Position numbers and translations under genes: made by a program. The notes below the pieces were generated by a model that worked only from the letters and a program-made list of their open reading frames with translations, was not told the DNA's origin and made no database searches. A stretch of 64,000 nucleotides of DNA from an uncultured Rickettsiales bacterium. GTDB lineage: Bacteria > Myxococcota_A > UBA796 > UBA9615 > CAYRNR01. Location of the stretch: assembly GCA_964504165.1 (NCBI GenBank), contig CAZDDH010000004.1, positions 16,748 to 80,747 of the forward strand. The letters run 5' to 3'. This document shows, one piece after another, positions 12,469 to 57,982 of this stretch (positions are counted from its first letter, which is position 1; each line of letters begins with the position of its first letter).

Positions 12469-14292
12469 TCAGCGAGCGATTCGGTGGCGCACGCGCAGGG
12501 CCGCCATCAGCGCCAGAGCCAGCCACGCCAGCGCCCCTGAGACAGGCTGCCCGCCGGGGACCGAGCAGCGGCAGGCGAACCCGGCCGGCGGCCCGCTGTC
12601 GTCGTCGTCCGCGCCGTTGTCGTCGTCGTCGTCGTCATCCCCGTCGGGGCACGACTCCACGTCCTCGCCGTCGGTGAGCCCGTCGCAGTTGTCGTCCACG
12701 CCGTTGTCGCACTTCTCGTCGCGGTCGGGATGCACACCGGGGTCGTTGTCATCGCAGTCGTCTTCGCAGGCCCCGTACCCGTCGCCGTCGTCGTCCGGGC
12801 GGTCCTTGGTGTCCTCGTTGCAGTCGTTGTCGATGTCGTCGCAGATCATCTCCGGGCAGTCGGGGCAGATGGTGTCGTTGCTGTCGTCACAGTCCCCTTC
12901 ACACTCGTCGCTGCCGTCCCCGTCGTCGTCTATCTCGTGGGGGTGCATCTCGCCGTCACAGTTGCTGTCCATGTGATCGCACTCGGACTCGTCGGCGTAC
13001 GGATGGACCTCGGGGCTGGTGTCGTTGCAGTCCCCCATGCAGCTGGACCAGCCATCGCCATCGTTGTCCTGTTCATCGGGCGGGAGCATCCCGTCACAGT
13101 CGTTGTCCAGGCCGTCGCACATCTCCGGATAGTAGGACGAGCGCCAAGGATCGTGGTCGTCGCAGTCGTTGTAGTAGTAATCCATGTCCACGTCGTAGTC
13201 CATGTACATGGCATCGCTGCCGCCGTAGGCGCCGATGTCACACAACGAGCCGTCCCAGTCGTCCCCCATGGCCTGGCTGTCCCCGTTGTCGATGAAGGGG
13301 CTACCGACGGCCAGCGTGAAGTCGTTGTCCAGATAGCTCCCAGCGTTGGGATTGTAGGCGGTGAACGGGCTGGAATCGGTCCACTCGTCGGTGCCCGGAG
13401 CGTAGCCTTGGTAAGCGCCCGGGTTGGACACCCCCGCATGGTTGTTGACCGAGTACGGCAGACAGTCCTGGTTGTACCCATAGGTGTGGGTCATGGCGAT
13501 GGAGTTGTTGAGCAGGATGTTGTTGAGGCTGGCCACCCAGCCCATGCCCTGGGTGTTGCACGTGGTGCGGAACGCCGTGTTATTGGAGGCAAAGACGTTG
13601 TGGTACAGGTCGACGGCCGGGCTGGGAGTGTTGCCGTCGATGAATGCCAGCTCGATGGCGGTATCGTTGCAGCCCCAGATGATGTTGTTGTTGATCGTGA
13701 GGTTGCTGTCGTACTCGTTGGTGGTCATCTGCATGACCAGGCCGTTGGCCTGGCAGTAGATGATGTTCTCCGAGAACAGCAGCGTGACGCTGCTGAACAG
13801 CTCCAACGCAACCGCGTTGGCGGTGTTCTCGAAGGCGTTGTTGTAGATCGTGAGTTGAGGCACCTGGTTGGGCTGAATGTTCTGGGCGGCGATGCCGTAA
13901 TCCAGCCCCTCGAAGTAGATCTCCGCGATGTACAAGGAGGACTGGATCCCCTCGGCCAGGATGCCCACCTGACCACCGATGATCGACAGACCGCCGACGA
14001 CCGACTCACCGGCGTGGATGACCACGCCGTCCGGATCCGGACTCCGGATGGCCGTCCATGCGGCGCCCGCTCCGATCAGGGAGACGCCGTCCGGGACGAC
14101 CAGCCCGGTCTCGTAGTAGTCCCCCGCCTCCACGTGAACCTGCCACCCGGCGCTGGCGGCAGCGAGCGCCTGCTCGATGGTGGGATAGTCGGTGGGGACG
14201 AAGACGTCCTGGGCGGCGGCCTGCCGTCCCCCCATCAGGGACAAGGCCAACGCCAGCAGCGTCAGCGACCCTCTGTGCAAGATTCGACTCAT
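12469..14292 (-). CDS. Secreted right-handed beta-helix (pectin-lyase-fold) protein with five MopE-like Cys/Asp-rich putative metal-binding repeats and a MYXO-CTERM-like C-terminal sorting tail.
   Basis: Signal peptide MSRILHRGSLTLLALALSLMGGRQAAAQD with GGAGGG RBS. NNNIIWG-type beta-helix repeats. Repeated DCDDxDPxxxPEMCDGLDNDCDG motifs. The tail ...GFACRCSVPGGQPVSGALAWLALALMAALRVRHRIAR is a Cys motif followed by a hydrophobic helix and basic residues. Confidence 0.7.
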   Translation of the reverse strand: MSRILHRGSLTLLALALSLMGGRQAAAQDVFVPTDYPTIEQALAAASAGWQVHVEAGDYYETGLVVPDGVSLIGAGAAWTAIRSPDPDGVVIHAGESVVGGLSIIGGQVGILAEGIQSSLYIAEIYFEGLDYGIAAQNIQPNQVPQLTIYNNAFENTANAVALELFSSVTLLFSENIIYCQANGLVMQMTTNEYDSNLTINNNIIWGCNDTAIELAFIDGNTPSPAVDLYHNVFASNNTAFRTTCNTQGMGWVASLNNILLNNSIAMTHTYGYNQDCLPYSVNNHAGVSNPGAYQGYAPGTDEWTDSSPFTAYNPNAGSYLDNDFTLAVGSPFIDNGDSQAMGDDWDGSLCDIGAYGGSDAMYMDYDVDMDYYYNDCDDHDPWRSSYYPEMCDGLDNDCDGMLPPDEQDNDGDGWSSCMGDCNDTSPEVHPYADESECDHMDSNCDGEMHPHEIDDDGDGSDECEGDCDDSNDTICPDCPEMICDDIDNDCNEDTKDRPDDDGDGYGACEDDCDDNDPGVHPDRDEKCDNGVDDNCDGLTDGEDVESCPDGDDDDDDDNGADDDDSGPPAGFACRCSVPGGQPVSGALAWLALALMAALRVRHRIAR

Positions 14293-14371
14293 GTTTCTGC
14301 CCTCCGGCCAGCGACCCCCGCTGCTGCCCCATGATAGCCAGCGGATCCTCGGGGGTGAAGCGATCCTCGGA

Positions 14372-15349
14372 TCAAAGGTCCCCACCACCCGTGCGCAGCC
14401 AGCAGGCACAGTGGTGCAACGCCCCCACCTCCTCGAGTTGTGGGCCGTCCCCCTGATGGCAGCGGTCAGCGGCGAGCGGGCACCGCGGCGCAAATGGGCA
14501 GCCGGTGTCCGGCCCATCGGGGCCCCGGGGCGCGTTCGGCGTCGCGGCCCCCTTCCCCCGGCCCGGTACGGAGCGCAGCAGGAGCTCGGTGTAGGGGTGG
14601 CGGGGCTCGTCGAACAGGGAGCCCGCCGGGGCGACCTCTACCAGTCGCCCGCGGTACATCACCGCCACGTGCGTACACAGGTGTCGGACCACCGCCAGAT
14701 CATGGCTGATGAACAGGTAGGTCAGCCCGTGCTCTTCCTGCAGATCAACGAGCAGGTTGAGGATCTGAGCCTGCACGGACACATCCAGGGCGCTGACCAC
14801 CTCGTCGCACACCAGGAACTCCGGCCCCAGCACCAGAGCCCGGGCGATGTTGATGCGCTGGCGCTGGCCGCCACTGAACCCGTGGGGGAAACGCCCGGCC
14901 AGTGCCGGGTCCAGCCCAACCCGGTTCAGGGCGGCGGCCACCCGGTCCTGCAGCTCGGTGCCCCGGGCGATGCCGTGGGCCACCAGCGGCTCGGCCAGCG
15001 CCTGGCCGATGGTCATCCGCGGATTGAGGCTCGTGTAGGGATCCTGGAAGGCCATCTGCATACGACGGCGCAGGGCCCGCAGCTCCCCCTCGCCCTGCGC
15101 CAGCACCGGCAGGCCGTCGAAGGTGACGCTCCCCTCGTCCGGCTCCACCAGCCGCAGCACACAGCGGCCCACGGTGGTCTTGCCGCAACCCGACTCCCCC
15201 ACCAGCCCCAAGGTGGTGCCGGTACCGATGGAGAAGCTCACGCCCTGGGCCGCATCGATCCAGCCGGCGGTGCGCATCAACAGGCCGCGGCGCACCGGGT
15301 AGCGCTTGACCAGGCCCTCCACGACCAGCAGCGGGTTCGCCCCGGTCAC
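14372..15349 (-). CDS. dppF: ABC oligopeptide transporter ATP-binding protein, DppF/OppF type.
   Basis: Walker A GESGCGKTT, signature LSGGQRQR and an intact oligopeptide C-terminal domain (GCPFAPRCP...HHCAC). The GTG start overlaps the upstream stop as GTGA. Confidence 0.8.
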   Translation of the reverse strand: MTGANPLLVVEGLVKRYPVRRGLLMRTAGWIDAAQGVSFSIGTGTTLGLVGESGCGKTTVGRCVLRLVEPDEGSVTFDGLPVLAQGEGELRALRRRMQMAFQDPYTSLNPRMTIGQALAEPLVAHGIARGTELQDRVAAALNRVGLDPALAGRFPHGFSGGQRQRINIARALVLGPEFLVCDEVVSALDVSVQAQILNLLVDLQEEHGLTYLFISHDLAVVRHLCTHVAVMYRGRLVEVAPAGSLFDEPRHPYTELLLRSVPGRGKGAATPNAPRGPDGPDTGCPFAPRCPLAADRCHQGDGPQLEEVGALHHCACWLRTGGGDL

Positions 15350-18279: not shown

Positions 18280-19635
18280 TCAACACCCAGGTAGGTTGTA
18301 CTCCACCACCACCGACGCGTTCGGCTGGGGAATGTACGCCTCTTCGAAGACGATGGCGTTGTCCGCCTCCACCCAGGTCCATCCCTGGACGAACCCCACC
18401 TGGTCCACCGTCACCTGGATGGTCCCCGGGTAGGGGAGCTGGCTCAGCTCGAAGCGATCCCGCTCGGTGAGGTAGATGGGATCGTCCTCGTAGACCGGGG
18501 TCCAGTCCGCGTCACAGATGGCAATATCGACCCCGCCGGTCACCGCGATGGCCTCGGCGATGCGGGGTGCCCCTAGGCCCCCGTCGCAGCCGTTGGCCGT
18601 CGGATAGATGGCGCTGATACTCACGTCTGCCGGGTCGTCCTTGAGGGCCCATAGCTGGTCCACGTAGTCCTGGACGTCTGCCGGCGAGTGGTCGTCCTCG
18701 TCGGTCATGATGATGACCGCAAGCGCTGCCTCATCCCGCAGGAACCCCTCGTTGTACTCGCCGGGGTTGGTCATCGCCGGCTGTAGCGCCGCCGTGCCGT
18801 ACAGCAACGGCTGTTCGTCGCCGAAGCCACCCGTCCCCACGGTGACATTGGTGGCGTAGGCGCCCGCCGGATTGCCGGAGTTGCCGTCGATGAAACGCTC
18901 GCCACCGTTGAGGTACTCGTCAAAAGTGGTCACCACGCCGATGTGGTAGTCCACCCAGTTGTCATCAAAGAAACCGATCAGCGCGGCCCCCAACGAGGCC
19001 AGCATCTCCTGCTCCTCGTACATGGAACCCGAGCTGTCCACGACCCACAGCTGGTCCACCGGCTTCTCCGGCGGCGCCACGAATTCATCGGCGTGGGAAT
19101 CTGCCGTGACCCCCCACCCCTGGGCATAGGTCACGACGATCGGGTAATCCTCGTGATCGGTGTAGGCCTGGATCGTGACGGCGTGGTGGTCGGCGGCCGA
19201 GGGGATGAACGAGATCTGCAGGTCCAGGCCGCTGAACGGTTCCACGGACCAGGGGGGCTCGGAGGAGGCGGTGACGACGAGGGCGCCGGGATCGTTCAAC
19301 AGCACCAGCGGCAGCACCACGACGGTGGCGTCCGTGTCGTTGATCAGGGTCAGGTCGAGGATCTCCTCGCAGCCGAGCACCGTGTCCGGGAACTCCAGCT
19401 CACCGGAGAACTGAATGCCGCTCTGGCACTCGTCGTCGTAGCCGTCCACCAGCCCGTCGCAGTCGTTGTCCACGTCGTCCAGGCAGTCCTCGTCAGCGCC
19501 CGGGTAGATGCTTGCGTCCTCGGGCCCGCAGTCGGAGGAGTCCTCCCAGCCGTCGCCGTCAAAATCGAACCGCGTGTCCGTTTGGGTGCAGCCCACCAGC
19601 GGTATGGCCAATCCGATGATCCACAGCAGGCGCAT
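18280..19635 (-). CDS. Lipoprotein with an N-terminal MopE-like Cys/Asp-rich putative metal-binding repeat and a VWA-like domain.
   Basis: Lipobox LAIPLVGC. DFDGDGWEDSSDCGPEDASIYPGADEDCLDDVDNDCDG. MIDAS-like VVDSSGSM. Confidence 0.7.
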   Translation of the reverse strand: MRLLWIIGLAIPLVGCTQTDTRFDFDGDGWEDSSDCGPEDASIYPGADEDCLDDVDNDCDGLVDGYDDECQSGIQFSGELEFPDTVLGCEEILDLTLINDTDATVVVLPLVLLNDPGALVVTASSEPPWSVEPFSGLDLQISFIPSAADHHAVTIQAYTDHEDYPIVVTYAQGWGVTADSHADEFVAPPEKPVDQLWVVDSSGSMYEEQEMLASLGAALIGFFDDNWVDYHIGVVTTFDEYLNGGERFIDGNSGNPAGAYATNVTVGTGGFGDEQPLLYGTAALQPAMTNPGEYNEGFLRDEAALAVIIMTDEDDHSPADVQDYVDQLWALKDDPADVSISAIYPTANGCDGGLGAPRIAEAIAVTGGVDIAICDADWTPVYEDDPIYLTERDRFELSQLPYPGTIQVTVDQVGFVQGWTWVEADNAIVFEEAYIPQPNASVVVEYNLPGC

Positions 19636-19704
19636 GATGAACCCTCCGTCGCGTACTCCCCGACGGACAGTCTAGCTGAATGGCTGTCAGACAGCCTGCA
19701 AGAA

Positions 19705-25677: not shown

Positions 25678-26637
25678 CTATTTCCACCCCGCCCTGTTCA
25701 GGTACGTCTTGACCTCTTGAACCGCCAGCTCGTGTAGGGCGGCCTTGTCGATGACCGTGGGTTCCACGTCCGGAGCCTTGTGGGAGCCCTTGTTGAGGAT
25801 GCGGTACGACTGGTGGAGGAACCATCCCCCCACCATGCCCACGTCCCCGGCACCGCCATCCATGGTCAACCCGCGGGCATCGACCTCCGCCTGACGGAAG
25901 CGGGACGCCAGCCCGTCGAGGCGCATGGCCTTGAGGCAGCCTTCCCGACGCATCGTACAGGCCACGAACCCCTCTGGCAGGTAACGCACCAGCAGCAGGT
26001 CGGCCCCGTTGTAGCGGCCCGCCCGTGCCGCAGCCGAGCTGGAACTCTCCATCGTCAACACGGTGGCGTCCCCGACCTCGCTGCGGATGGCGTCGTCCGC
26101 ATCGTCCAGCGCCTGGAACCAGGCCCGCTCCACGGCCACGATGGCGTCGAAGACCGGCTCGGCGTCATGGTAGACCCGCTCGCCCTGCCCGGGGTGCAGC
26201 TGGTTGAAGCCGTTGATGATGGCCGGCAGGGCCACCGCATGGTCGATGGGATCCCGGCTGCGGATCGATTGCCCCTTGAGATCCTGGCGGGAACCGAAGG
26301 CCAGCACCTTGCGAAGCTCGGGGAGGTTGCGCACCCCCAGGTGTTCGGCGAGCAGCTCGGCGGCGGCGGCGTCCAGGTTGCCACTACCCGGCCGGTCCCG
26401 GCGGGGGTGGTTGTCGAAGCGGCCGCCCCCCAGGTCGACGACCAGCAGCCCCTGCTCTTCCAGCGCCTCCGGGCCGCCGGCTTCTTCCACCGCCATGGGC
26501 GACATGAAGCGCAGCTCGCATGTGTCGCAGCCGGGGAAGTCCCGCGCTCCGTAGCGCCGCAGCAGGTAGATGCACAGGAGGGCATCCAGGTCGGGGAAGG
26601 GATGGGTGACGATAGCCCGGATGTGGTCTTCGCTCAC
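25678..26637 (-). CDS. Hypothetical protein, possibly a DHH-superfamily-like phosphoesterase (DxD ... DNH motifs). Translationally coupled by GTGA to the upstream HD-GYP gene.
   Basis: HPFPDLDALL, VVDLGGG and FDNHP motifs resemble DHH motifs I-III. The assignment is tentative. Confidence 0.45.
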   Translation of the reverse strand: MSEDHIRAIVTHPFPDLDALLCIYLLRRYGARDFPGCDTCELRFMSPMAVEEAGGPEALEEQGLLVVDLGGGRFDNHPRRDRPGSGNLDAAAAELLAEHLGVRNLPELRKVLAFGSRQDLKGQSIRSRDPIDHAVALPAIINGFNQLHPGQGERVYHDAEPVFDAIVAVERAWFQALDDADDAIRSEVGDATVLTMESSSSAAARAGRYNGADLLLVRYLPEGFVACTMRREGCLKAMRLDGLASRFRQAEVDARGLTMDGGAGDVGMVGGWFLHQSYRILNKGSHKAPDVEPTVIDKAALHELAVQEVKTYLNRAGWK

Positions 26638-28229
26638 GGGTCGCCGCCTTCCGCAGCGATGAACTTGGCCAGTTCGTCGCGCAGCTCTTCTTCTACGTAT
26701 CGAAGGAATTCGTCCACGAACGCGGGATCCCAGCGCCGTCGCTTGCCATCCTTGAGGATATCGATGACCCGCTGGAGGGGCATGGGGTCCCGGTAATGAC
26801 GCTCCTTGGTCAGGGCGTCGAAAACATCCGCGATGCCGATCATCTGGCCCGCTTCGGGGAAGTCGTCGGCGGAGAGGCCGAAGGGGTACCCTTTGCCGTC
26901 CAGGCGCTCGTGATGGGTGGCGGCCATGAACGGCAGATTCTCCATCCCCTCGGGAAAATGGATCCGCGCGAGGATGTCGTGGGTCAGCTGCGGGTGGGCC
27001 TTGATGGCCATGAACTCGGCGTCGTCGAGCTTGCCCGGCTTACGCAGCACCGCGTCGTCGACGCCGATCTTGCCGTAGTCGTGGAGCAGCCCGGCCCAGT
27101 AAATCTGCTTGCACTCCTCCGGGGGACGCCCAAGGCGCTCGGCCAGCCGGCGAGAGTAGGTGGCCACCCGTTTGGAATGGCCCGAGGTCATGTTGTCGCG
27201 AGCGTCGATGCTGGCCGCCAGGGTCTCCATCAGGCTCTCGAGCATGCGCTCCTGCTCAGATACCAGGTACAGCGTCTCCAGGGCGATGCCCAGCTGGCGC
27301 CCCACGGCCAGCAGGAACTCCAGCATCTCGTCGTCGTACGGGGTGCGCATGGTCAAGGTGTCGGTGTACAGGGCACCCCAGACGCGCTTCATGCTGGTGA
27401 TGGGGGCCACCATCACCGACCGCACCGCCTGGAAGGCCAGCGTCTCCGCGGCGGCCAGGCGCTCGTCCTGCGGTGCGTCCCGGCTGACCATGCCCACCCG
27501 ATCCCGCATCACCAGGCCGGTGATGACTCGGGACGGCTGGAACGAGGCCAGGTTGCCCGTCGTGGCTCGCACCGCCACGGCCACCTGCTCTTCGGCCCCC
27601 GGCTCCTTGATGATCACCGCGGCCCGCTCACCGGGCAGCTGGTCCACCACCGAATCCAGGATCAGCTCGTACATCTTCTCCTGTTCGCGGCTGGACGTCA
27701 GCGCGGCGGTGAGTTCGTACAGGCAGCCCAGCCGGCGCACGGACTCCAGGTCCTTGCGCTGGGCGGTGATCTCCCCCATCACGTAGCGGGACTGTTCCAG
27801 ATCGAGGGTCCGCAGGATCTGCGTGCCCGGATCCGGCTTGAGCGTGTCGGCGCCGGCGGACGCCGTCTCGACCCGGCGGCCGAGCTTGACCGCGTGCCCC
27901 CCCGGTGCGCCCACGTGCACCCAGGTGTCCAGCGGGATGGGCATCTCTCGGATGCGCATCCCGTGGAGATAGGAGCCCGAAGTGCTGGACAGGTCCTTGT
28001 AGAGCCACCGTTCCCCGTCCTTCTGGATCAAGGCGTGGCGGCGGGAAACAAACTGGCTTGCAATGCAGATGTCCGAGCTGCTGCTGCGGCCGATCAGCGC
28101 CTTGCCGGCCTGGATCGGATAGGTCGATTCGGTGCCCTGTTTGTCGCGGTGGACGATGAAATAGGACGTGGCAGGCTCGGTACCCATGATCGGGTGATCG
28201 TATCTGGCTAGTACGTTCGGATCCAGCAC
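26634..28229 (-). CDS. FHA-GAF-HD-GYP multidomain protein, a putative c-di-GMP phosphodiesterase.
   Basis: N-terminal FHA (GRSSSSDICIASQFVSRRHALI), central GAF-like region, HD (LLHDYGK) and HHERLDGKGYP motifs. Start is GTG at 28229 or ATG at 28187. Confidence 0.85.
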   Translation of the reverse strand: MLDPNVLARYDHPIMGTEPATSYFIVHRDKQGTESTYPIQAGKALIGRSSSSDICIASQFVSRRHALIQKDGERWLYKDLSSTSGSYLHGMRIREMPIPLDTWVHVGAPGGHAVKLGRRVETASAGADTLKPDPGTQILRTLDLEQSRYVMGEITAQRKDLESVRRLGCLYELTAALTSSREQEKMYELILDSVVDQLPGERAAVIIKEPGAEEQVAVAVRATTGNLASFQPSRVITGLVMRDRVGMVSRDAPQDERLAAAETLAFQAVRSVMVAPITSMKRVWGALYTDTLTMRTPYDDEMLEFLLAVGRQLGIALETLYLVSEQERMLESLMETLAASIDARDNMTSGHSKRVATYSRRLAERLGRPPEECKQIYWAGLLHDYGKIGVDDAVLRKPGKLDDAEFMAIKAHPQLTHDILARIHFPEGMENLPFMAATHHERLDGKGYPFGLSADDFPEAGQMIGIADVFDALTKERHYRDPMPLQRVIDILKDGKRRRWDPAFVDEFLRYVEEELRDELAKFIAAEGGDP

Positions 28230-30910: not shown

Positions 30911-32932
30911 TTACTCCAACTCTTTGAGATGCGTGTCGAACCAGCGGATCATGTGCTTGAGGCGTTCCCGGCGGTGCACGGGCGTACCGCTGCGGGAGAG
31001 GCCGTGGCCCTCCCCCGGGAAACGCACCAGCTCCGCCGTCACCCCGTGCCGGATCAGGGCCGTGAAGAACTCCTCGGCCTGGCCGACTGGCACCCGGTGA
31101 TCCTGGTCCGAATGGATGATCATCGTTGGGGTGTGGATCGATGGCGCGTAGGTCAACGGCGACCAGCGGGCGTACTCCTCGGGGTGGTCCCAGGGAGTGC
31201 CGGGGATGTCGCTCTCCGAGAAGAACTGTTCGTCGGTGGTGCCGTATTCGCTGACCTGGTTGATCACCGCGCGGCAGAGCACGGCGGCGCGGAACTGGTC
31301 CCCCTGGCCGATGGCGTACCCCGCCAGGAAGCCGCCGTAGCTGCCGCCGGTGATGCCCACCCGGCCCGCCGTGGCCAGGCCCTTGCCCACTGCCCAGTCC
31401 ACCGCCGCCAGCACGTCCTCGTAGGGGGCGCCGCCCCAGTCGCCGGAGATGGCGTCCATGAACGCCTGGCCGTAGCCCATCGACCCGGTGAAGTTCACCG
31501 CCAGCACGCCGTAGCCGGCGCCGGCCAGGGCCTGGACCTCCGGATCCCAGCGGTGGCCCATGCACCACTGGGGGCCGCCGTGCAGGGTGACGATCATTGG
31601 GGGGGGCGTATCTGACTCTGCAACGGCCGCCGGGGGGTAGTACCACACCTGGATGGAGCGGCCATTGGGGGCGTCCACCCAGCCCACGACGGGCTCGGAC
31701 AGGGGGGTCGCGGCCAGGTCATCGTTGAAGGTGGTCAGCCGGCGCAGGCCGCGGGCGCCCTCTTCTCCGAGCTGGGTGACTCCGCGGGCGGCCCGGCGAT
31801 CCAGCAACCATAGTTCGGCAGGCTGGTCCGCGTCCGTGATCTGCAGCACCGTGGTGCGACCGTTGGCAGAGGTGGAGTAGTCCCAGACCCAGGCGTCGCC
31901 GCCGGTGAGTCGCTCCAGGCGGCCCGGCCGGTTGTAAGGGATGCGGGCCAGGTGCCAGCTGCCCGCGTCACTCCACAGGAACTCCACGCCCTTGCCGTCG
32001 CCGCTGAACCGGGGACGGAAGATGTGGCGATCGAGCTGCTCGGTGAGCTCGGTGGGTTCCCCGCCGGCCACCGGCCACAGCAGCACGCGGCGGCGGCCAC
32101 TCTCGTAGCCTTCTTCGCGGATGGAGCGCGTCAGCAGCGTCTTGCCGTCGGGGGAGAATGCCGGCCTCGCGTCCGGGCCCGGGTTGTCGGTGACCAGGCG
32201 GGCCTCGCCACCGGCCAGGGGCTGGATCCACACGTTGGTATCGATGGAGTAGATGCCCGGATGGTCGGCGTCGCGTACGTAGGCCAGCCAGCGGCCGTCC
32301 GGGGAGATGGCCGGCTCGGAGTGGTCGTGATCGCCGTTGGAATCGGTGAGGCAGGTGGCTTCGCCGCCGGTGGCCTCCACCCGGTAGAGGTGCTGGTAAC
32401 GCCCCTGCTCCCAGTGGCTGCCCTTGCGGTACAGCAGGTCGGTGTGGACCGCCACATCTTCCCCGGCCAGAACGTCGGCTTCCTTTCCTGGCCCACGGCT
32501 GCTGAAGATCAGGAAATTGCCACTGGGGGTCCAGACCGGCCCGCCCGCCCCGCCTGGGTGGTCGGTCACCGGCTGGGGCTCGCCGAAGAATCCGTCAAAA
32601 CGCCAGATCTGCGAGGAACCGCCCCGGCTGCTGACAAAGGCCAGCGATGCCCCGTCCGGCGACCAGCGGGGGCTGTGGTCCATCCCGGGATCGGTGGTCA
32701 GCTGGCGCGGCTCGGCGCCGGATTCCGTGGACACGTACCACAGGTCCATCTGGGTGCTGTTGGTGGCCACGTCGCAGGTGCGCAGCACGAACACCACCGC
32801 CGCCCCGTCCGGTGCCATTTGGGGGTCCGTCACCGCAGCGCCCGCACAGACGTCCTGCGGGCCGAAGCCCAGGGCATTGGCCGGCGGGATGGCGGTCAGG
32901 GCGAGCAGCAACAGGGCGGGAACGTAACGCAT
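30911..32932 (-). CDS. S9-family serine peptidase (prolyl oligopeptidase / acylaminoacyl-peptidase type) with an N-terminal TolB-like beta-propeller; secreted.
   Basis: Signal peptide MRYVPALLLLALTAIPPANA. GGSYGG nucleophile elbow, catalytic D and H (GEGHGL). The listed ORF extends to 32992. Confidence 0.85.
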   Translation of the reverse strand: MRYVPALLLLALTAIPPANALGFGPQDVCAGAAVTDPQMAPDGAAVVFVLRTCDVATNSTQMDLWYVSTESGAEPRQLTTDPGMDHSPRWSPDGASLAFVSSRGGSSQIWRFDGFFGEPQPVTDHPGGAGGPVWTPSGNFLIFSSRGPGKEADVLAGEDVAVHTDLLYRKGSHWEQGRYQHLYRVEATGGEATCLTDSNGDHDHSEPAISPDGRWLAYVRDADHPGIYSIDTNVWIQPLAGGEARLVTDNPGPDARPAFSPDGKTLLTRSIREEGYESGRRRVLLWPVAGGEPTELTEQLDRHIFRPRFSGDGKGVEFLWSDAGSWHLARIPYNRPGRLERLTGGDAWVWDYSTSANGRTTVLQITDADQPAELWLLDRRAARGVTQLGEEGARGLRRLTTFNDDLAATPLSEPVVGWVDAPNGRSIQVWYYPPAAVAESDTPPPMIVTLHGGPQWCMGHRWDPEVQALAGAGYGVLAVNFTGSMGYGQAFMDAISGDWGGAPYEDVLAAVDWAVGKGLATAGRVGITGGSYGGFLAGYAIGQGDQFRAAVLCRAVINQVSEYGTTDEQFFSESDIPGTPWDHPEEYARWSPLTYAPSIHTPTMIIHSDQDHRVPVGQAEEFFTALIRHGVTAELVRFPGEGHGLSRSGTPVHRRERLKHMIRWFDTHLKELE

Positions 32933-33062
32933 GGGAGCCTCCTGACAGTCGATGACTGAATCAGGAATCGTCCCCGGGCGCAAGGGCGCCACTGGCGTGT
33001 ATGGGAACAGGTGCTCCAGGCAGCGCCCGCCGGCCGGCGAGCGCCGCCTGGCACCCGTGGTT

Positions 33063-33260
33063 TCATTGCAGCGGATTGCCCTTCGCGTCGGTCATCTTGC
33101 CCATCGCGATCATCACCAGATCGATGAGGTACCAGATCCCGAATCCCCCGAAGGTGAACAGCTGGATCGCCCCCTGGAGGGTGTACCCCAGATAAAAACG
33201 GTGGGCTCCCACAAAACCCATGAACAGGCAAAGCCCCATCGCAACCATCTTGCTCTTCAT
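33063..33260 (-). CDS. TM2-domain small membrane protein.
   Basis: MKSKMVAMGLCLFMGFVGAHRFYLGYTLQGAIQLFTFGGFGIWYLIDLV. The ORF could extend to 33365. Confidence 0.6.
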   Translation of the reverse strand: MKSKMVAMGLCLFMGFVGAHRFYLGYTLQGAIQLFTFGGFGIWYLIDLVMIAMGKMTDAKGNPLQ

Positions 33261-33478
33261 TCTCTCGATCTCCCGTAAAACGTGCCCTGGGACGACGACC
33301 GGCCAACTCCGACCGCCGGTTCCCGCTGTCAAGCTGGGTAGACCGTAGGCAAGGGTTGGGTTCAAAGCGCGTCAAACGGGGTCAAATCACGGGGGGGCTG
33401 CGTTTGATCGGGACACAGCAATGGGACGTTCAGAAAAACGGACGCTCATAAGAACATAAGAAAATCGTGTGGCACGTG

Positions 33479-33496
33479 ACCGTGACCGTGACCGCG
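33479..33496. repeat. (GTGACC)x3 hexanucleotide microsatellite, a second copy of the motif seen at 16383.
   Basis: Read directly: gtgaccgtgaccgtgacc, between the radical SAM gene and the TM2 gene. Confidence 0.85.
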
Positions 33497-33516
33497 AAGA
33501 ATGGGGAACGGCGGAA

Positions 33517-34668
33517 TCAGCCTCGAGATCTACGCAAGTAACGCCCCAATTCCTGAGGAACCCGCCGGGCCGTACGCCGCAGACCGTGCCGGCGCAGGTA
33601 CTTGTGGCCCTCCCCCACCAGCGTGGGTAGGGAGCCAGGGACGAGGGTGCGCACGTTGGGGCCGGCGATGTCGCCGCGGCATTGCTGGCAGAACGGCTCG
33701 GTGAGGCGCCCGGCGGAGAAGTCCCGGCGGCGCTGTTGGTAGCGCTCGTCGCCGATGATGTCCGACAGACTCCGCTGGCTGGCGTCGCCGAAGGCCAGCA
33801 CGCCATCGTAGTCCAGGCAACACTGGGTCACCTTGCCGTCCCAGTGGATGGCCAGGGTGTCCAGCGCCAACTGGCAGGTGCCCCGATCCCGCGGTTCGAC
33901 CCAGGTACCGTCCACCAGCAGGGCGTTGGCCCAGATGGTGGCCCGCTTGAAGTACAGCGCCACGCCGGGCAACAGGGGGAGCCGGCGTTCGGCCCCCATC
34001 CACAGGTTGGCGGCGTCCCGAGCCGAGATGGGCGGCGGCGCAGGGAGCCCCAGCTCACGGGCCCACTCCACCGCCTGGCCGCGGATACGGCGGGCGGCCC
34101 GGAGGCGCTCGCGGGCGGTCTCCAGGACGGCCACGCCGCCCGGACGCTCCAGGGAGGTGCTCAGCAAATGCACCGCGATCTCGGTGCGAGAGCCGGTGCG
34201 GAACCTGGTCAGCACGGCGCGACGCAGGGTCGCCAGGTTGTCGTCCCAGGAAAAGCGGCTGCCCGCGCCTTTGAGGCCATAACTGTCCTCGTCGGGGGTC
34301 TGCAGGCTCAGGGTCAGGTGGTCGAGGGGCAGCGTCAGCAACGGCTCCAGGCGCTGTTCGTCCAGCAAGCTGTAGTTGGTGAACAGGTGGCAGGGCAGCC
34401 CTCGCTCCACGACCATCTGGGCCAGGGTGACGATCTCGGGGTGCATCATCGGCTCCCCGAGCAGGTACAGATTGACGTAACGGCAGAGATTTTCGTCGGC
34501 GATCTCATCCAGCAGGCGCGCCGCCAGTTCCAGGTCCATGAAACCGCGCTTGCGCTCCATGCGCGCGTTGGGACAGAAGGCGCAATGGAAGTTACAGACG
34601 TTCGTGGGTTCTAAGAAGATGCAGTCGTAGGGTGGTACTCGCATAACTCGGCGCCCCGAGAATACCAC
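33517..34668 (-). CDS. Radical SAM protein with a C-terminal SPASM/twitch-like Cys cluster.
   Basis: CNFHCAFC (Cx3Cx2C) near the N-terminus. C-terminal C...CC...C..C (TCQLALD...VTQCCLDYDG...FCQQCRG). Start is ATG at 34668 or 34644. Confidence 0.8.
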   Translation of the reverse strand: MVFSGRRVMRVPPYDCIFLEPTNVCNFHCAFCPNARMERKRGFMDLELAARLLDEIADENLCRYVNLYLLGEPMMHPEIVTLAQMVVERGLPCHLFTNYSLLDEQRLEPLLTLPLDHLTLSLQTPDEDSYGLKGAGSRFSWDDNLATLRRAVLTRFRTGSRTEIAVHLLSTSLERPGGVAVLETARERLRAARRIRGQAVEWARELGLPAPPPISARDAANLWMGAERRLPLLPGVALYFKRATIWANALLVDGTWVEPRDRGTCQLALDTLAIHWDGKVTQCCLDYDGVLAFGDASQRSLSDIIGDERYQQRRRDFSAGRLTEPFCQQCRGDIAGPNVRTLVPGSLPTLVGEGHKYLRRHGLRRTARRVPQELGRYLRRSRG

Positions 34669-34750
34669 TACACAGCGTTTGACTTACCCCTGGCCATGCC
34701 CATAGTTTCCACGGAGACTGGCCCTACACCAGAAAGGGTGTCCAAGACGG

Positions 34751-36715
34751 ATGGAGAAGATCTTATACGTCATCGAAGTGGTGCTGGGGTTCGGGGGGCT
34801 GATCTTCATCCACGAACTGGGGCACTTCCTGCTGGCCAAACGGGCCGGCGTGAAGGTCCTGCGCTTTGCCATCGGCTTTGATTTCTGGGGCCTGCGGCTG
34901 TTCAAGAAGACCATCGGCGAGACCGAATACGTCATCGGCGCGTTCCCGCTGGGCGGCTACGTCAAGATGCTGGGTCAGGAGGACCTGCCCACCGAGGGGG
35001 AGGAGGAGGAGGCGCTGCCCGATGGCCACTTCCTCAGCAAGTCGGTGTGGGCGCGCACTCAGATCATTTCCGGTGGGGTGATCGCCAACTTCCTGCTGGC
35101 CTTCCTGCTGGCCTACGGCGCCTTCGTCTTCGGGTACCACCGCTACCCCAACGAGATCGGCGGGGTGGGGTTCGACTCGCTGGAAGCGGGCATGAAGCCC
35201 GGCGACGTCATCGAGAGCGTGGGCGGCGACCGGGTGGAGTCGTGGACAGAGATGTTCATGGCCTATGCCCTGGCCGAGCCGGGCCAGGACATCCAGATGG
35301 TGGTCCGCCGGGATGGCGAGCTGGTGGAGCTGATGATTCCCGTGCTGCGGGATCCGGACCAGCCCATCAACCTGCCTGATTTCGACCGGGCCACCGGATT
35401 GCAGATCGCCGCCATCGAGGCGGAATCCGCCGCGTCACGGGCCGGGGTGCAGGCCGGGGATACTCTTGTCAGTGTCAACGGCATCCAGCTCGACACCTGG
35501 AACCAGTTTTCGTCGCTGGTGGCGGCGGAGGCGGGCCAGAATGTCCAGCTAGGTGTCCAGCGGCTGGAGGAGGACGGGAGCGCCGGGGCCGTCGAGGTCC
35601 TGGAGATGACCCTGGGGGAGACGGATGACTACCTGGCCCCGACACGGGCGCTGGGTTTCGGGGCGGGCGAGCCCCCGATCGTGGATGGAGTACTGCCCGA
35701 CTCCCCGGGGGCGCAGGCGGGGCTCAAGGCCGGGGATCGATTCCAGCAGGTGGGCGGCGTCGACGTGGCCACCTGGCGCGACGCCTGGATACTCATCGAA
35801 TACGCCGAGGCGGATGTCCCGCTGCCTATCACGGTCCTGCGGGACGAGCAGCCGGTCAAGCTGGCCCTGATCCCCCAGCGGGCGCCTCACTGGGCCATCG
35901 GTGTGTGGGGACTGCCGGGCATCGGCGCCATCCATCGTGCCCCCGGGGCCGCGCGGGAAATCGAAAAAGGGGGGGTCTCCCCATCTTGCGGGTCCGAGGA
36001 GGTCGAGATCCCGGGGATCCGGATAGGATGGCTCGATCCAGACGGGCCGGCGGCCGAGGCCGGGCTCCAGGTCGGGGATATCGTCACCAAGCTGACCTTC
36101 ACCGGTGATGACGGCGAGCCGGTGGAGAAGCCGGCGTACAGCTGGAACTACACCTACTCGGTCCTGGCGCGGAACACCATCGGCGAAGGTTACGTCAACC
36201 TGGATTTCATCCGCGACGACCGGGCCATGTCCAAGGCCGTCGAGCTGGTCCCCGATCCCCAGGGCAAACGCCGGGGGTTGGTGGGGGTGATGGGCGTCTA
36301 CCAGCAGGAGTTCGTGCGGCTGGGGCCCATCGAGGCCATCGTGCCCTCGCTGCGCAAGCCGTTCACCCTGTTCGACGAATTCCTCAAGGGCTTCCGCGCC
36401 ATGTTCACCGGCCGGGTCAGCCCCACCACCATCGCCGGGCCGATGGGGATCCTGGACGTCACCTACGACGCCGCCTCCCAGGGCTTCGGTGACCTGTTGC
36501 TGCTGCTGGCGTTGATCAGCGTCAACCTGGCCATCATCAACTTCCTGCCCATTCCCATCACCGATGGCGGCCATGCCATGTTCTTGTTGTACGAGAAGGT
36601 TCGCGGTCGGCGGATGAGCGAGGCAGTTCAGGGTAAGCTGATGTGGGCGGGCCTGGTCTTCATCTTGATGATCTTCGTGTTCGCCACGTGGAACGATATC
36701 GGTCGTATTTTCTGA
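34751..36715 (+). CDS. rseP: Site-2 protease RseP (M50 family), an extended form with multiple PDZ domains.
   Basis: HELGHF zinc motif in TM1, several PDZ-like segments, C-terminal TM block with LDGG. 654 aa, versus about 450 aa for canonical RseP. Confidence 0.85.
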   Translation: MEKILYVIEVVLGFGGLIFIHELGHFLLAKRAGVKVLRFAIGFDFWGLRLFKKTIGETEYVIGAFPLGGYVKMLGQEDLPTEGEEEEALPDGHFLSKSVWARTQIISGGVIANFLLAFLLAYGAFVFGYHRYPNEIGGVGFDSLEAGMKPGDVIESVGGDRVESWTEMFMAYALAEPGQDIQMVVRRDGELVELMIPVLRDPDQPINLPDFDRATGLQIAAIEAESAASRAGVQAGDTLVSVNGIQLDTWNQFSSLVAAEAGQNVQLGVQRLEEDGSAGAVEVLEMTLGETDDYLAPTRALGFGAGEPPIVDGVLPDSPGAQAGLKAGDRFQQVGGVDVATWRDAWILIEYAEADVPLPITVLRDEQPVKLALIPQRAPHWAIGVWGLPGIGAIHRAPGAAREIEKGGVSPSCGSEEVEIPGIRIGWLDPDGPAAEAGLQVGDIVTKLTFTGDDGEPVEKPAYSWNYTYSVLARNTIGEGYVNLDFIRDDRAMSKAVELVPDPQGKRRGLVGVMGVYQQEFVRLGPIEAIVPSLRKPFTLFDEFLKGFRAMFTGRVSPTTIAGPMGILDVTYDAASQGFGDLLLLLALISVNLAIINFLPIPITDGGHAMFLLYEKVRGRRMSEAVQGKLMWAGLVFILMIFVFATWNDIGRIF

Positions 36716-53878: not shown

Positions 53879-56089
53879 CTAGCCGGCGGGGCCGTCTCTC
53901 ATCTCCAGCAGTCGCCGCAGCAGGATGCGCACCTCGGCGGCTTCCCGTCCCTCCGGCGCCAAGCCGATATAGGTCTGGTACTCGTTGATGGCGTCGTCGG
54001 TGCGGCCAAGGCCCTCGTAGGACAGCCCCAGCCCGTAATGGTTTTCGGCATCCATCGAGTTCAGATTGACCGCCTTGCGGAAATGCTCCGCCGCCCGGCT
54101 GTTGTTGCCCAGTTCGATGTAGGACCAGCCCAGCCCCTTCTGCGCATTGGCATTGGAAGGGCTGGCGGCCAGGATCTTGTTGAACTCGGCGATGGCCTCG
54201 GTGTGCTGCCCGCCGCTGGCGAGCCGCATCGCCCGGGACATGTCCCCCGGATCCGCCGGAGGCTCGGGCGTCGGCTCCTCGACCGGCTCTGCGAACGACA
54301 CGATGCCGTCGTCCTCCTCCGGGTCGTCGGCCGGTGGTGTCGGCTCCTCGGCAGGCGTTTCTTCCTCGACCTCCGGATCCTCGGCGGGGTCCTCGACCGG
54401 GTCGGTGGGCGTGGGCTCCTCGCCGTTGTCCGCGAGGGCGTCCGTCGGTGCCTCCGCCTCGGTGGGCTCCGTCTCCGTCGGTGTCTCCACCTCGGCCGGC
54501 GTGAGCGAGTCGTTGGACGGATTGGTGAACTGTTCTTCGGTGGTCTGACGCATGTTGTGGACGGCATAGCCGGCGCCGACGAGGATCGCCGCGATGACGA
54601 TCACGCCCCCGATGATCCAGGGCAACATCGTGGGCCCGGGCTCGTCGTCCTCGTCTTCTTCGTCATCATCGAAGGCCTGCCCGAAATCGTCCCCCTCCCA
54701 AACCTCGTCTTGCGGATCGCCCTCCTCATCCTCGCTGAAGGCATCCTCGAACTTCTTGAAATCCCCGTCCAAGCTTTCCTCTTCGCTCGTTGGGGAGATG
54801 GCCTTGGGGGTCTCTTCGACGCCACGGCCGACGCTGGCCTCGTCCTCTTCGCTCTCCGGCTCCCCGTCGCCCCCATCGCCGACGTCCGACAGGTCCGCCG
54901 TGGTGGGCGACTGCCCCATGTCGGCGCCGGGCTCCTCGATGATGCTCTGAGCCGCCGGGTCGAACCAGGGCTCTACCACGTCCTCGGACGCGATCTTGGA
55001 TACCGCATCGATGGCGCCCGCAGGGATCGGGGTGCCCGCTTCTTCCTCGCCGCCGGGGATGACCTGCTCCTCGTGTGAGATGTCCGGGTTCGCGGCATCG
55101 AAGAAGACGTCTGCGCTCGACTTTGCTGCCGCATCTTCTGCGGGCGGCTCCGCCGGTTCCTCCGCCGGGGCCTCACCCTCGGCCGCGTGGACCACCGGTT
55201 CGGCCGCCGGGCCGGCCTCGGCGGCCATCTCTTGGCCCAGACTCTCCGGCTCCACGACCTCTTCGTGTGGGGCCGCCGCCGCCTGCTCCAGATCCCGCCA
55301 GGAGTCTGCAAACTCCTGCTCCGCCGCGCTGTCGGCCACTTCGTCCACCGGTGTGGCCGGCGGCGGGCCCGGGGCGTCGTCCACGGACGGGGTCACCCGG
55401 CCGGGGTCGCCCATCAGCGACGAAAAGGAAGTGTCCGGTTCGACGATGTCGGCGCCCGGTTCGGGGAAACCGGCCGGGACCAGGTCTTCGTCCGAGTCCA
55501 GCGGAGCATCGGCCAGATCCTCCGGAGCAAAGGCCACCAGCGTCCGGGCCTCCCCCTCGTCGGGCATGCTGGCCATCACCTCGTGGGTGGGGTGCACCTG
55601 TGGCGCCTCGAACTCATCGTCGTCGTCGTGGACCGGAGGCTCCTCCACCATCAGCATCTCGCGCGTCTCGTAGACCTTGAGATGCTCCCGAGTCTGCAGG
55701 AGTTCCCGCCGCGTCTCCCGCAGCTGGCGCAACACCGCAAAGAAAGCCCGTAGCTGGCTCAGCCTGCTGGCCAGCTCCCAGCTCTCACCGTCGGCCGATA
55801 CCTCGTCGGTGGCCAGTACCCGCTTCTCGATGACCCACCGCTGCAGCAGGGACAGGTCGCGGACCGTGTAGACTCTCCCCTCCTGCCGAAGGTAGAGCAC
55901 CTTCTTGGTGAGCTTACCGATCTTGCGCTTCTTCTTTGTGCTGGACTCCTTGAGGGCCGGTCCGGTCTTGGGACGATGGATGGTGAATACGTGCTCGCAG
56001 TTGGAGCACTTCACCTTGGCCCCACGGCTAGGGATACGATCGTCCTGGAAGGCGTATTCGCTCTCGCAACTGGGGCAGGTGATTCGCAC
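53879..56089 (-). CDS. Bitopic protein with an N-terminal MJ0042-type zinc ribbon, a GYF-like (DUF4339-like) segment, a long acidic disordered linker, a single TM helix and C-terminal TPR repeats.
   Basis: ITCPSCESEYAF...KVKCSNCEHVFTI, then YLRQEGRVYTVRDLSLLQRWV. More than 350 aa of Asp/Glu/Pro-rich sequence. TM LPWIIGGVIVIAAILVGAGYAV. TPR-like tail. Confidence 0.7.
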   Translation of the reverse strand: MRITCPSCESEYAFQDDRIPSRGAKVKCSNCEHVFTIHRPKTGPALKESSTKKKRKIGKLTKKVLYLRQEGRVYTVRDLSLLQRWVIEKRVLATDEVSADGESWELASRLSQLRAFFAVLRQLRETRRELLQTREHLKVYETREMLMVEEPPVHDDDDEFEAPQVHPTHEVMASMPDEGEARTLVAFAPEDLADAPLDSDEDLVPAGFPEPGADIVEPDTSFSSLMGDPGRVTPSVDDAPGPPPATPVDEVADSAAEQEFADSWRDLEQAAAAPHEEVVEPESLGQEMAAEAGPAAEPVVHAAEGEAPAEEPAEPPAEDAAAKSSADVFFDAANPDISHEEQVIPGGEEEAGTPIPAGAIDAVSKIASEDVVEPWFDPAAQSIIEEPGADMGQSPTTADLSDVGDGGDGEPESEEDEASVGRGVEETPKAISPTSEEESLDGDFKKFEDAFSEDEEGDPQDEVWEGDDFGQAFDDDEEDEDDEPGPTMLPWIIGGVIVIAAILVGAGYAVHNMRQTTEEQFTNPSNDSLTPAEVETPTETEPTEAEAPTDALADNGEEPTPTDPVEDPAEDPEVEEETPAEEPTPPADDPEEDDGIVSFAEPVEEPTPEPPADPGDMSRAMRLASGGQHTEAIAEFNKILAASPSNANAQKGLGWSYIELGNNSRAAEHFRKAVNLNSMDAENHYGLGLSYEGLGRTDDAINEYQTYIGLAPEGREAAEVRILLRRLLEMRDGPAG

Positions 56090-56141
56090 GGCCCGATTCT
56101 ACCTTCTCTGCTCCACAGGGGAAACGCCGAACCCTTTTCTG

Positions 56142-57794: not shown

Positions 57795-57982
57795 GTTCGT
57801 CCCGGAGCGGCGATGCGTGGCCGCCTCGTATCTCTATTCAGTCCTTTGGACCTCGCGAAGAGCCGTTTGTTCCATCCAGGTACACTTTCCCCACCCTCTT
57901 CGCCACCCCAAGAATACCACAATGGCCCGCCGGACCGCTGCCCTCACTGGGCCGGGATCGGCGAGAATCGGCATCCTTCTGA

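Follow-up and report, generated by a model that had tools for sequence, protein, structure and literature searches.

Radical S-adenosylmethionine (SAM) enzymes with a SPASM or twitch domain are encoded by around 165,000 genes, and a small fraction of them have a known substrate (PMC9012708). A SPASM domain by definition binds two auxiliary clusters, and the twitch of the BtrN type, as it is understood here, is a SPASM cut short, in which one set of Cys ligands serves one auxiliary cluster (PMC9012708). The auxiliary cluster of BtrN (2-deoxy-scyllo-inosamine dehydrogenase of the butirosin pathway; PDB 4M7T/4M7S) is ligated by four Cys and has been proposed to act as electron acceptor in an enzyme that carries out a two-electron oxidation (PMC9012708). 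We analysed a gene of this class, located at 33517..34644(-) in a stretch of 64,000 nucleotides (nt) of contig CAZDDH010000004.1 from an uncultured Rickettsiales bacterium; the whole of this stretch is called the window below. A first-pass annotation of the same DNA had described an orphan radical SAM protein with a Cys pattern typical of peptide maturases, flanked by a TM2-domain protein and a secreted S9 peptidase. The present analysis indicates that the protein is built like BtrN and, with a probability of roughly 0.45, that it tailors a sugar or an envelope glycan.

The radical SAM protein, its twitch domain and its family

The longest open reading frame (ORF) of the gene, 33517..34668(-), begins with a GTG and encodes 383 amino acids (aa), and its numbering is used for all residues of the protein. 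The true product has probably 375 aa and starts at the ATG at 34644, because the nearest relative, L085 (87% amino-acid identity), begins MREPLYD and the window ORF contains an in-frame ATG at 34644 that yields MRVPPYD…. The start of a public gene call of 347 aa (P0001), placed at M37, was discarded as surely wrong, since the CX3CX2C motif would be lost. The ORF is a genuine, conserved gene. Its GC content at third codon positions (GC3) is 0.85, with a codon-position GC pattern that matches that of the surrounding genes, and the comparison with L085 revealed 103 codons that differ synonymously only and 49 amino-acid changes, a crude ratio of nonsynonymous to synonymous substitution of ~0.13 that points to purifying selection.

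Pfam assigned residues 20-152 to Radical_SAM (PF04055; 72.8 bits, gathering cutoff 29.5) and residues 265-330 to SPASM (42.1 bits, gathering cutoff 21.5). The CX3CX2C motif CNFHCAFC (C25, C29 and C32; 34573..34596(-)), the site of the predicted SAM-binding [4Fe-4S] cluster, has Cys that are invariant in alignments of 22 and of 29 sequences, and a GGE-like GEP motif is invariant at G71-E72-P73 in the orthologue alignment. Judged by this motif and by a PF04055 match above the gathering score, the protein is a member of the radical SAM superfamily. The description of a radical SAM protein with CNFHCAFC and a C-terminal Cys cluster was thus upheld, and the cluster persisted once the orthologues were aligned.

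The nature of that cluster turned out to be different from what had been proposed. The protein has 11 Cys (residues 16, 25, 29, 32, 62, 93, 265, 283, 284, 327 and 330), eight of which (C25/C29/C32, C265, C283, C284, C327 and C330), along with G278, are invariant across 29 orthologues and remain so when a distant group of 324-aa proteins is added. The auxiliary region, C265-x12-G278-x4-C283-C284 … C327-x2-C330 (33679..33876(-)), holds five Cys in a C-x12-G-x4-CC … C-x2-C pattern that equals the first half of SPASM plus its CxxC. No Cys lies beyond C330 in the translated protein and, therefore, there are too few Cys to ligate a second auxiliary cluster in full. The 42 bits of the Pfam SPASM match stem from the shared first half and the CxxC, which the model spans. 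A full SPASM domain is said, after Grell et al. in 2015, to carry the seven-Cys motif C-x9-15-G-x4-C … C-x2-C-x5-C-x3-C … C, and only five auxiliary Cys were found here. Consequently, the pattern is not the one typical of anSME, sactisynthase or ranthipeptide maturases, as the first-pass annotation had held.

A profile of the orthologues was compared with all PDB sequences. BtrN, aligned over its core as well as its twitch, was the best match (E 1.2e-16), eight orders of magnitude better than PqqE (1.3e-8); BlsE (2e-5) and DesII (6e-3) followed, and neither a RiPP (ribosomally synthesised and post-translationally modified peptide) sactisynthase nor another RiPP maturase was found at E 0.01 or better in that search. 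C265, C283, C327 and C330 align with C169, C187, C232 and C235, the four ligands of BtrN. By this alignment the region is a twitch of the BtrN type, with a single ligand set placed as in BtrN, and the protein would hold two clusters, both [4Fe-4S].

BtrN and the window protein share a CX3CX2C core followed by a C-terminal twitch, but the window protein is ~125 aa longer, owing to two extra elements, a two-helix insertion at about residues 175-260 and a basic C-terminal helix of 40 aa, and it has an extra adjacent Cys, C284. With an identity of just 14-19% and no aminoglycoside biosynthesis genes in any context examined, it does not qualify as an equivalog of BtrN (DOIA dehydrogenase), although it may work in a way like that of BtrN. 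Its predicted architecture, with a fold of the BtrN type, fits the twitch paradigm except for the insertion and the conserved basic tail. This tail (VPGSLPxLxGEGxKYLxR…RRxPQE…YL; 33520..33642(-)), recognised in the alignment and in the predicted structure, has 13 invariant residues (V343, P344, S346, P348, G352, E353, Y357, R360, R369, P371, Q372, E373 and Y377); helix 344-382 is predicted at low pLDDT, and the element as a whole (residues 343-383) is restricted to the protein's own clade and a few near relatives.

Other described enzymes are further away. DesII, BlsE and SpeY, which are sugar-acting radical SAM enzymes of twitch or SPASM-like type, differ from the window protein in cluster ligation patterns and gene contexts. 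With respect to anSME, SuiB, PqqE, SkfB, the AlbA-type sactisynthases and the PapB-type ranthipeptide maturases, the window protein is short of the Cys that would complete the seven-Cys motif. Compared with the SPASM maturases, it is also devoid of an RRE (RiPP recognition element) domain and of a conserved precursor, transporter or peptidase. A role as anSME finds no support in the five Cys, in the NCBIfam matches of the protein, which include no anSME model, or in the gene contexts, where co-occurrence with Cys/Ser-type sulfatases would be expected of an anSME; a PF00884 gene is confined to L083/L089, at a distance of ~6-8 kb, and is lacking in the window and the remaining loci.

No curated NCBIfam radical SAM family was reached, as all 33 matches of the protein stayed far below their cutoffs. 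The best one, TIGR04317 (W_rSAM_matur, a tungsten-cofactor maturase), scored 73.1 bits against a cutoff of 380 and covered the N-terminal core only; the BlsE and DesII models gave 23 and 22 bits (cutoffs 400 and 450), and ten wider relatives were likewise below every curated cutoff. The classification that had been suggested as a check thus led to a twitch assignment, but not to a confident place in a known family, and a confident assignment to a non-peptide family was not obtained either. The identity of the top NCBIfam matches (W_rSAM_matur at 73 bits, AhbC, NirJ1/2 and PqqE) could suggest an enzyme of a cofactor pathway, either a maturase of a tungsten-cofactor oxidoreductase or a haem enzyme like NirJ or AhbD. 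Such a role is very unlikely, given that these matches span only the N-terminal core (residues ~17-150) far below the cutoffs (73 versus 380) and that no tungsten or haem genes were present in the contexts examined.

Sequence searching in a collection of 5.8 billion proteins delimited the clade to 34 clusters at 50-87% identity, after which identity drops to 27% with the group of 324-aa proteins. Exhaustive profile searching across 1.84 billion representatives recovered the clade itself as one cluster at 50% identity, and beyond it a wider family with 241 clusters below E 1e-30 and 7,667 below 1e-10. Members of the wider family matched the profile over its full length (positions ~7-327) with E 1e-30 to 1e-72 and had the same twitch pattern. 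They include stand-alone proteins together with fusions to TPR repeats or glycosyltransferases, such as P0096, which is fused to a TuaH-like glycosyltransferase, and most of them are devoid of the basic C-terminal helix. A scan of genome contigs with the single protein as query, for which patterns were too specific, retrieved only distant relatives (22-37% identity, mostly Pyrinomonadaceae, N-terminal core only), and a scan of metagenome contigs retrieved six loci, all of the type referred to here as group B. The literature on radical SAM/SPASM genes in polysaccharide clusters provided no description of this family. Taken at sequence level, the protein is an ordinary member of a very large, well-known enzyme class, in which it represents a new, small subfamily without annotation. 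This five-Cys twitch clade resembles BtrN and stands apart from the SPASM maturases of RiPP type.

Two features of the wider relatives deserve a mention in their own right. The TPR-fused proteins P0110, P0117 and P0131-P0134 carry long N-terminal TPR arrays, of up to ~700 aa, in an architecture that has no curated family. In L097 (8001-11418) and L098 (7796-11220), the 324-aa relatives are always followed by a gene of the penicillin-amidase family (Ntn hydrolase), in a ribosomal-protein/EF-Ts neighbourhood, and thus form a conserved pair of another kind.

Gene contexts of the relatives and the possible substrate

The gene contexts of several orthologues and relatives point to envelope glycans. 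In L081, an orthologue at 50-57% identity, the radical SAM gene overlaps the stop codon of a flippase gene (Polysacc_synt) by 4 bp and closes an operon that encodes two family 4 glycosyltransferases (GT4), a hypothetical protein, a radical SAM protein, an acetyltransferase, a PIG-L protein, a further GT4 and the flippase. The radical SAM gene of P0081, the nearest outgroup, in which the C-terminal helix is kept, lies 1 nt upstream of a family 2 glycosyltransferase (GT2) gene in a Wzy_C/GT2/GT4/methyltransferase/flippase cluster. In L002, a more distant relative, the order is GT4, radical SAM, a second radical SAM, a family 28 glycosyltransferase (GT28) and GT4. In L083, L084, L089 and L091-L094, which like L081 carry orthologues at 50-57% identity, the radical SAM gene is divergent from a class-I methyltransferase gene, beyond which, where the flank is long enough, an LpxL-like acyltransferase (PF03279) is found; L083/L089 further contain Wzy_C, a second methyltransferase and a flippase.

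A block of genes for a GGR-like FAD oxidoreductase, an SDR protein and a PaaK-like ligase is often located downstream of the orthologues. It was considered as a partner and rejected: the gap of 190-1050 bp, its better conservation than that of the radical SAM gene and its absence in L093-L095 indicate that the FAD oxidoreductase block is a separate unit.

The acyltransferase and the methyltransferase are the most constant neighbours of the 50-57% orthologues. Together with the conserved basic C-terminal helix and with the small membrane proteins found downstream in both lineages, they are consistent with an enzyme that modifies a membrane lipid or glycolipid, of the lipid-A-like kind for example, and that is docked on the inner membrane by the helix. 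Against this proposal, which appears unlikely, the LpxL-like match is weak when compared with curated models (20.8 bits versus a cutoff of 297.8), the helix is predicted at low confidence and no lipid-A genes occur nearby in the window.

Tailoring of a sugar or an envelope glycan is preferred because a five-Cys BtrN-like twitch, the lack of a recognition domain, the lack of a local peptide (see below) and the glycan-gene contexts of orthologues and some relatives point in the same direction. According to this proposal, a cytoplasmic enzyme built like BtrN would have a partial TIM-barrel core, with a SAM-cleaving [4Fe-4S] cluster on C25/C29/C32, and a C-terminal twitch in which C265, C283 (or C284), C327 and C330 provide all the ligands of one auxiliary [4Fe-4S] cluster. 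The 5′-deoxyadenosyl radical would abstract hydrogen from a C-H bond of an intermediate that is a sugar, a nucleotide-sugar or a glycolipid, and the auxiliary cluster would accept the second electron, as proposed for BtrN (PMC9012708). The net reaction would oxidise an envelope-glycan building block by two electrons, or tailor it by closely related radical chemistry, and the product would be a sugar, within an envelope glycan or glycolipid, that has been oxidised or changed by a radical route in some other way. Both the substrate class and the chemistry are proposed by analogy.

Several observations weigh against the assignment to glycans. The copy in the window adjoins no glycan gene, since the 64 kb are of housekeeping character; in L005 the radical SAM gene comes after an amino-acid ABC transporter, and in L097/L098 (the distant, Bacteroidota-type group of 324-aa proteins) it comes before a penicillin amidase; many wider relatives have N-terminal TPR repeats that in principle are able to bind proteins; and the identity to BtrN is low, as described above. 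If the link with glycans were true, the clade would be a candidate for the oxygen-independent radical tailoring of O-antigen or exopolysaccharide sugars in uncultured high-GC bacteria of sediment or marine origin. The analysis is useful mainly for correcting the annotation and for drawing attention to a putative association of twitch radical SAM enzymes with envelope-glycan clusters, with no new principle involved.

Spacer DNA and neighbouring genes in the window

The first-pass annotation had seen no convincing precursor peptide close to the gene, and this was borne out by the comparison with L085. A spacer of 255 nt separates the stop codon of the radical SAM gene from the TM2 gene, and ~130 nt of it are an insertion absent from L085. 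The non-coding part 3′ of the stop codon (33366..33516) was examined by alignment with L085, repeat finders and six-frame translation. The insertion contains two microsatellites, (CGTGAC)3.3 at 33475..33494, which corresponds to the one noted previously, and (CATAAGAA)2 at 33447..33462, both detected by repeat finders. It also contains the 20-codon frame that had been singled out as the only short ORF nearby (33387..33449(-); MSVRFSERPIAVSRSNAAPP); six-frame translation confirmed that this frame exists and has no Cys, and it is not conserved. No ORF is shared between the spacers of the window and L085 in six-frame translation. Matches to Rfam in 32900..34900 were at chance level, and a promoter and terminator scan from the radical SAM gene to the TM2 gene gave nothing informative, the sole terminator-like match lying inside the TM2 coding sequence.

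With regard to recognition domains, no PqqD or RRE match was present in the radical SAM protein (Pfam, E ≤ 0.01), and no such gene was found among the neighbours. The CX3CX2C motif begins 17 residues past the start codon, and the 16-24 residues that precede it, depending on the start used, leave no room for an N-terminal RRE. Hence, neither an RRE, fused or adjacent, nor an adjacent conserved precursor gene, by which a RiPP system is recognised, was found for the radical SAM gene. As far as can be read from the sequence, the window holds no precursor peptide for the enzyme. According to the preferred reading, the enzyme is an orphan in this genome and does not act as a RiPP maturase on a substrate encoded nearby.

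The lack of a local precursor would be compatible with a peptide or protein maturase that acts on the product of a gene located elsewhere, or on a full-length protein, as anSME and QhpD do. The SPASM/twitch class includes many maturases of RiPPs and proteins, TPR fusions are common in the wider relatives and, in SkfB, a twitch domain is reported to serve a sactisynthase (PMC6231123). However, an RRE or PqqD-like domain is missing, no small ORF is conserved in the window or L085, and no transporter or leader peptidase of RiPP type is conserved with the clade. BtrN is preferred over PqqE by eight orders of magnitude with no RiPP maturase at E 0.01, and no NCBIfam model of a RiPP maturase comes near its cutoff. 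This makes a maturase rather unlikely, and a non-RiPP role, which had been left open, is the better guess from the Cys count and the profile search.

The genes around the radical SAM gene were correctly recognised in the first-pass annotation with one small difference. The TM2-domain membrane protein (33063..33260(-); PF05154 at 70 bits) is present, with 65 aa instead of the 66 aa given. The S9 peptidase of the prolyl-oligopeptidase family (30911..32932(-); Pfam and NCBIfam) has a signal-like N-terminus (MRYVPALLLLALTAIPPANA) and a PD40 propeller, in agreement with the extracytoplasmic location assigned to it. The divergent rseP gene at 34751..36715(+) encodes an RseP site-2 protease (TIGR00054, 317 bits, cutoff 147.55), as had been proposed.

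A functional neighbourhood of TM2 and S9, by contrast, did not hold up. The order rseP (divergent), radical SAM, TM2, S9, UbiB and a hypothetical protein of 293 aa occurs only in the window contig and in three contigs of the relative at 87% identity, that is, within a lineage of 87-100% identity, to which the co-occurrence of the radical SAM gene with TM2 or S9 is limited. TM2, S9, UbiB and rseP were absent near all the 50-57% orthologues examined. Homologues of TM2 at 69-72% identity adjoin either an arylsulfotransferase and a PreP-like M16 peptidase or a type II secretion system ATPase and DUF952, and no radical SAM or S9 gene was found near them. The Cys at position 11 of TM2, in helix 1, was tried as the site of modification and rejected, because the same Cys occurs in TM2 homologues that have no adjoining radical SAM gene.

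These data bear on the idea that radical SAM, TM2 and S9 proteins form one module, in which modification in the cytoplasm would be followed by extracellular processing by the S9 peptidase. In favour of it, the three genes lie side by side in the same direction, both in the window and in the three contigs of the 87%-identical relative. Synteny largely refutes it, however, as the adjacency belongs to one narrow lineage, the 50-57% orthologues all lack TM2 and S9 nearby and the 69-72% homologues of TM2 have other neighbours. In addition, a 255-nt spacer with a 130-nt insertion or deletion and a separately conserved stretch upstream of TM2 lie between the first two genes, and the Cys of TM2 is not specific to the copies linked to radical SAM genes. 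A module of this kind is extremely unlikely. The adjacency is only lineage-specific synteny and, therefore, uninformative on the substrate of the radical SAM enzyme; TM2, the S9 peptidase and rseP look like chance neighbours rather than its partners. The case illustrates how the neighbourhood in a single genome can mislead on the role of an enzyme.

Two non-coding stretches are conserved on their own account. The ~105 nt upstream of TM2 (33261..33365(-)) are ~85-90% identical to L085, and the spacer that flanks them varies by insertion or deletion. This strong conservation suggests that they are the control region of TM2 itself, probably a promoter or a leader; several TTGAC repeats are found within 33261-33365. 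The intergenic region between rseP and the radical SAM gene (34645..34750) is ~90-95% identical to L085 in the alignment, better conserved than the flanking coding DNA, which suggests dense regulatory signals. A promoter scan placed a sigma70-like site for rseP at 34679..34706.

A 30-residue reading frame beside the orthologues, and other features of the window

In eight of the 12 group-B loci, which are orthologue loci of the lineage other than that of the window, a conserved 30-aa ORF for a single-pass membrane protein, MTEQQERALFWWCMIAVLLGFWVLIGMLVT, with one Cys and a WW pair, lies 180-250 nt downstream of the radical SAM gene. It is located in the (+) strand at 11336-11428 in L084, 11370-11462 in L089, 11050-11142 in L090, 5274-5366 in L092, 3229-3321 in L093, 2318-2410 in L094 and 1794-1886 in L095, and it is also present in L091 with a GTG start; it is missing from L081/L082, L083, L096 and the lineage of the window. 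Translation of the ORF is very probable, given a GGAG-type ribosome-binding site and nucleotide changes that are for the most part synonymous. No NCBIfam match was obtained, and the Pfam matches were sub-threshold (17 bits or less), without a credible family.

The DNA between the radical SAM gene and the 30-aa ORF is AT-rich and unconserved except for a (G/T)GAACC-N16-GTCTAA motif ~35 nt before the ATG (L084 ~11270-11300, with equivalents in L089, L092, L093/L094 and L095), the -35 and -10 parts of which are kept while the spacer varies. The motif resembles the sigmaE/ECF (extracytoplasmic function) consensus GGAACTT … (T/C)GGTCAAAA (PMC1312014), a likeness that suggests an envelope-stress-regulated small protein. 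We read the ORF as an independently transcribed small membrane protein of the envelope-stress response.

The same ORF could also be viewed as a substrate, in which case the clade would be a maturase of very small inner-membrane proteins. Docked at the membrane by its C-terminal helix, the enzyme would serve the envelope-stress response by cross-linking or oxidising a residue within a transmembrane helix. The 30-aa peptide comes next in 8/12 loci, the next gene in the lineage of the window encodes the 65-aa TM2 protein with a Cys at similar depth in helix 1, and rseP adjoins. Such a modification is not known, and this role seems highly improbable.

The rest of the window contains hisD, an Opp-type transporter, a DEAD helicase, OmpA, UbiB, rseP, an AAA ATPase, iPGM, L21/L27/Obg, RlmH, M16, DnaK, GGDEF, UvrD and GlmU. 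An ORF of 1,343 aa at 4586-8617(-) shows the codon GC pattern of a gene (GC3 0.89); Pfam gave no match at E ≤ 1e-4. Large proteins with repeated putative metal-binding motifs of the MopE type (PF11617) are encoded at 12469-14637(-) and 18280-19671(-); similar proteins occur near the orthologue in L084, and they may be a taxonomic marker of the lineage. The products of two tandem genes at 53879-56098(-) and 56142-57833(-) look like paralogues, each having an MJ0042-type zinc ribbon at the N-terminus and TPR repeats at the C-terminus. Together with the FHA-GAF-HD-GYP protein described next, these MopE-type and zinc-ribbon proteins would tentatively suggest a Myxococcota-like lineage. Finally, a 531-aa FHA-GAF-HD-GYP protein is encoded at 26634-28229(-), downstream of the block formed by S9, UbiB and the 293-aa hypothetical protein and in the same position in L088; it is likely a cyclic-di-GMP phosphodiesterase with a phosphopeptide-binding input.

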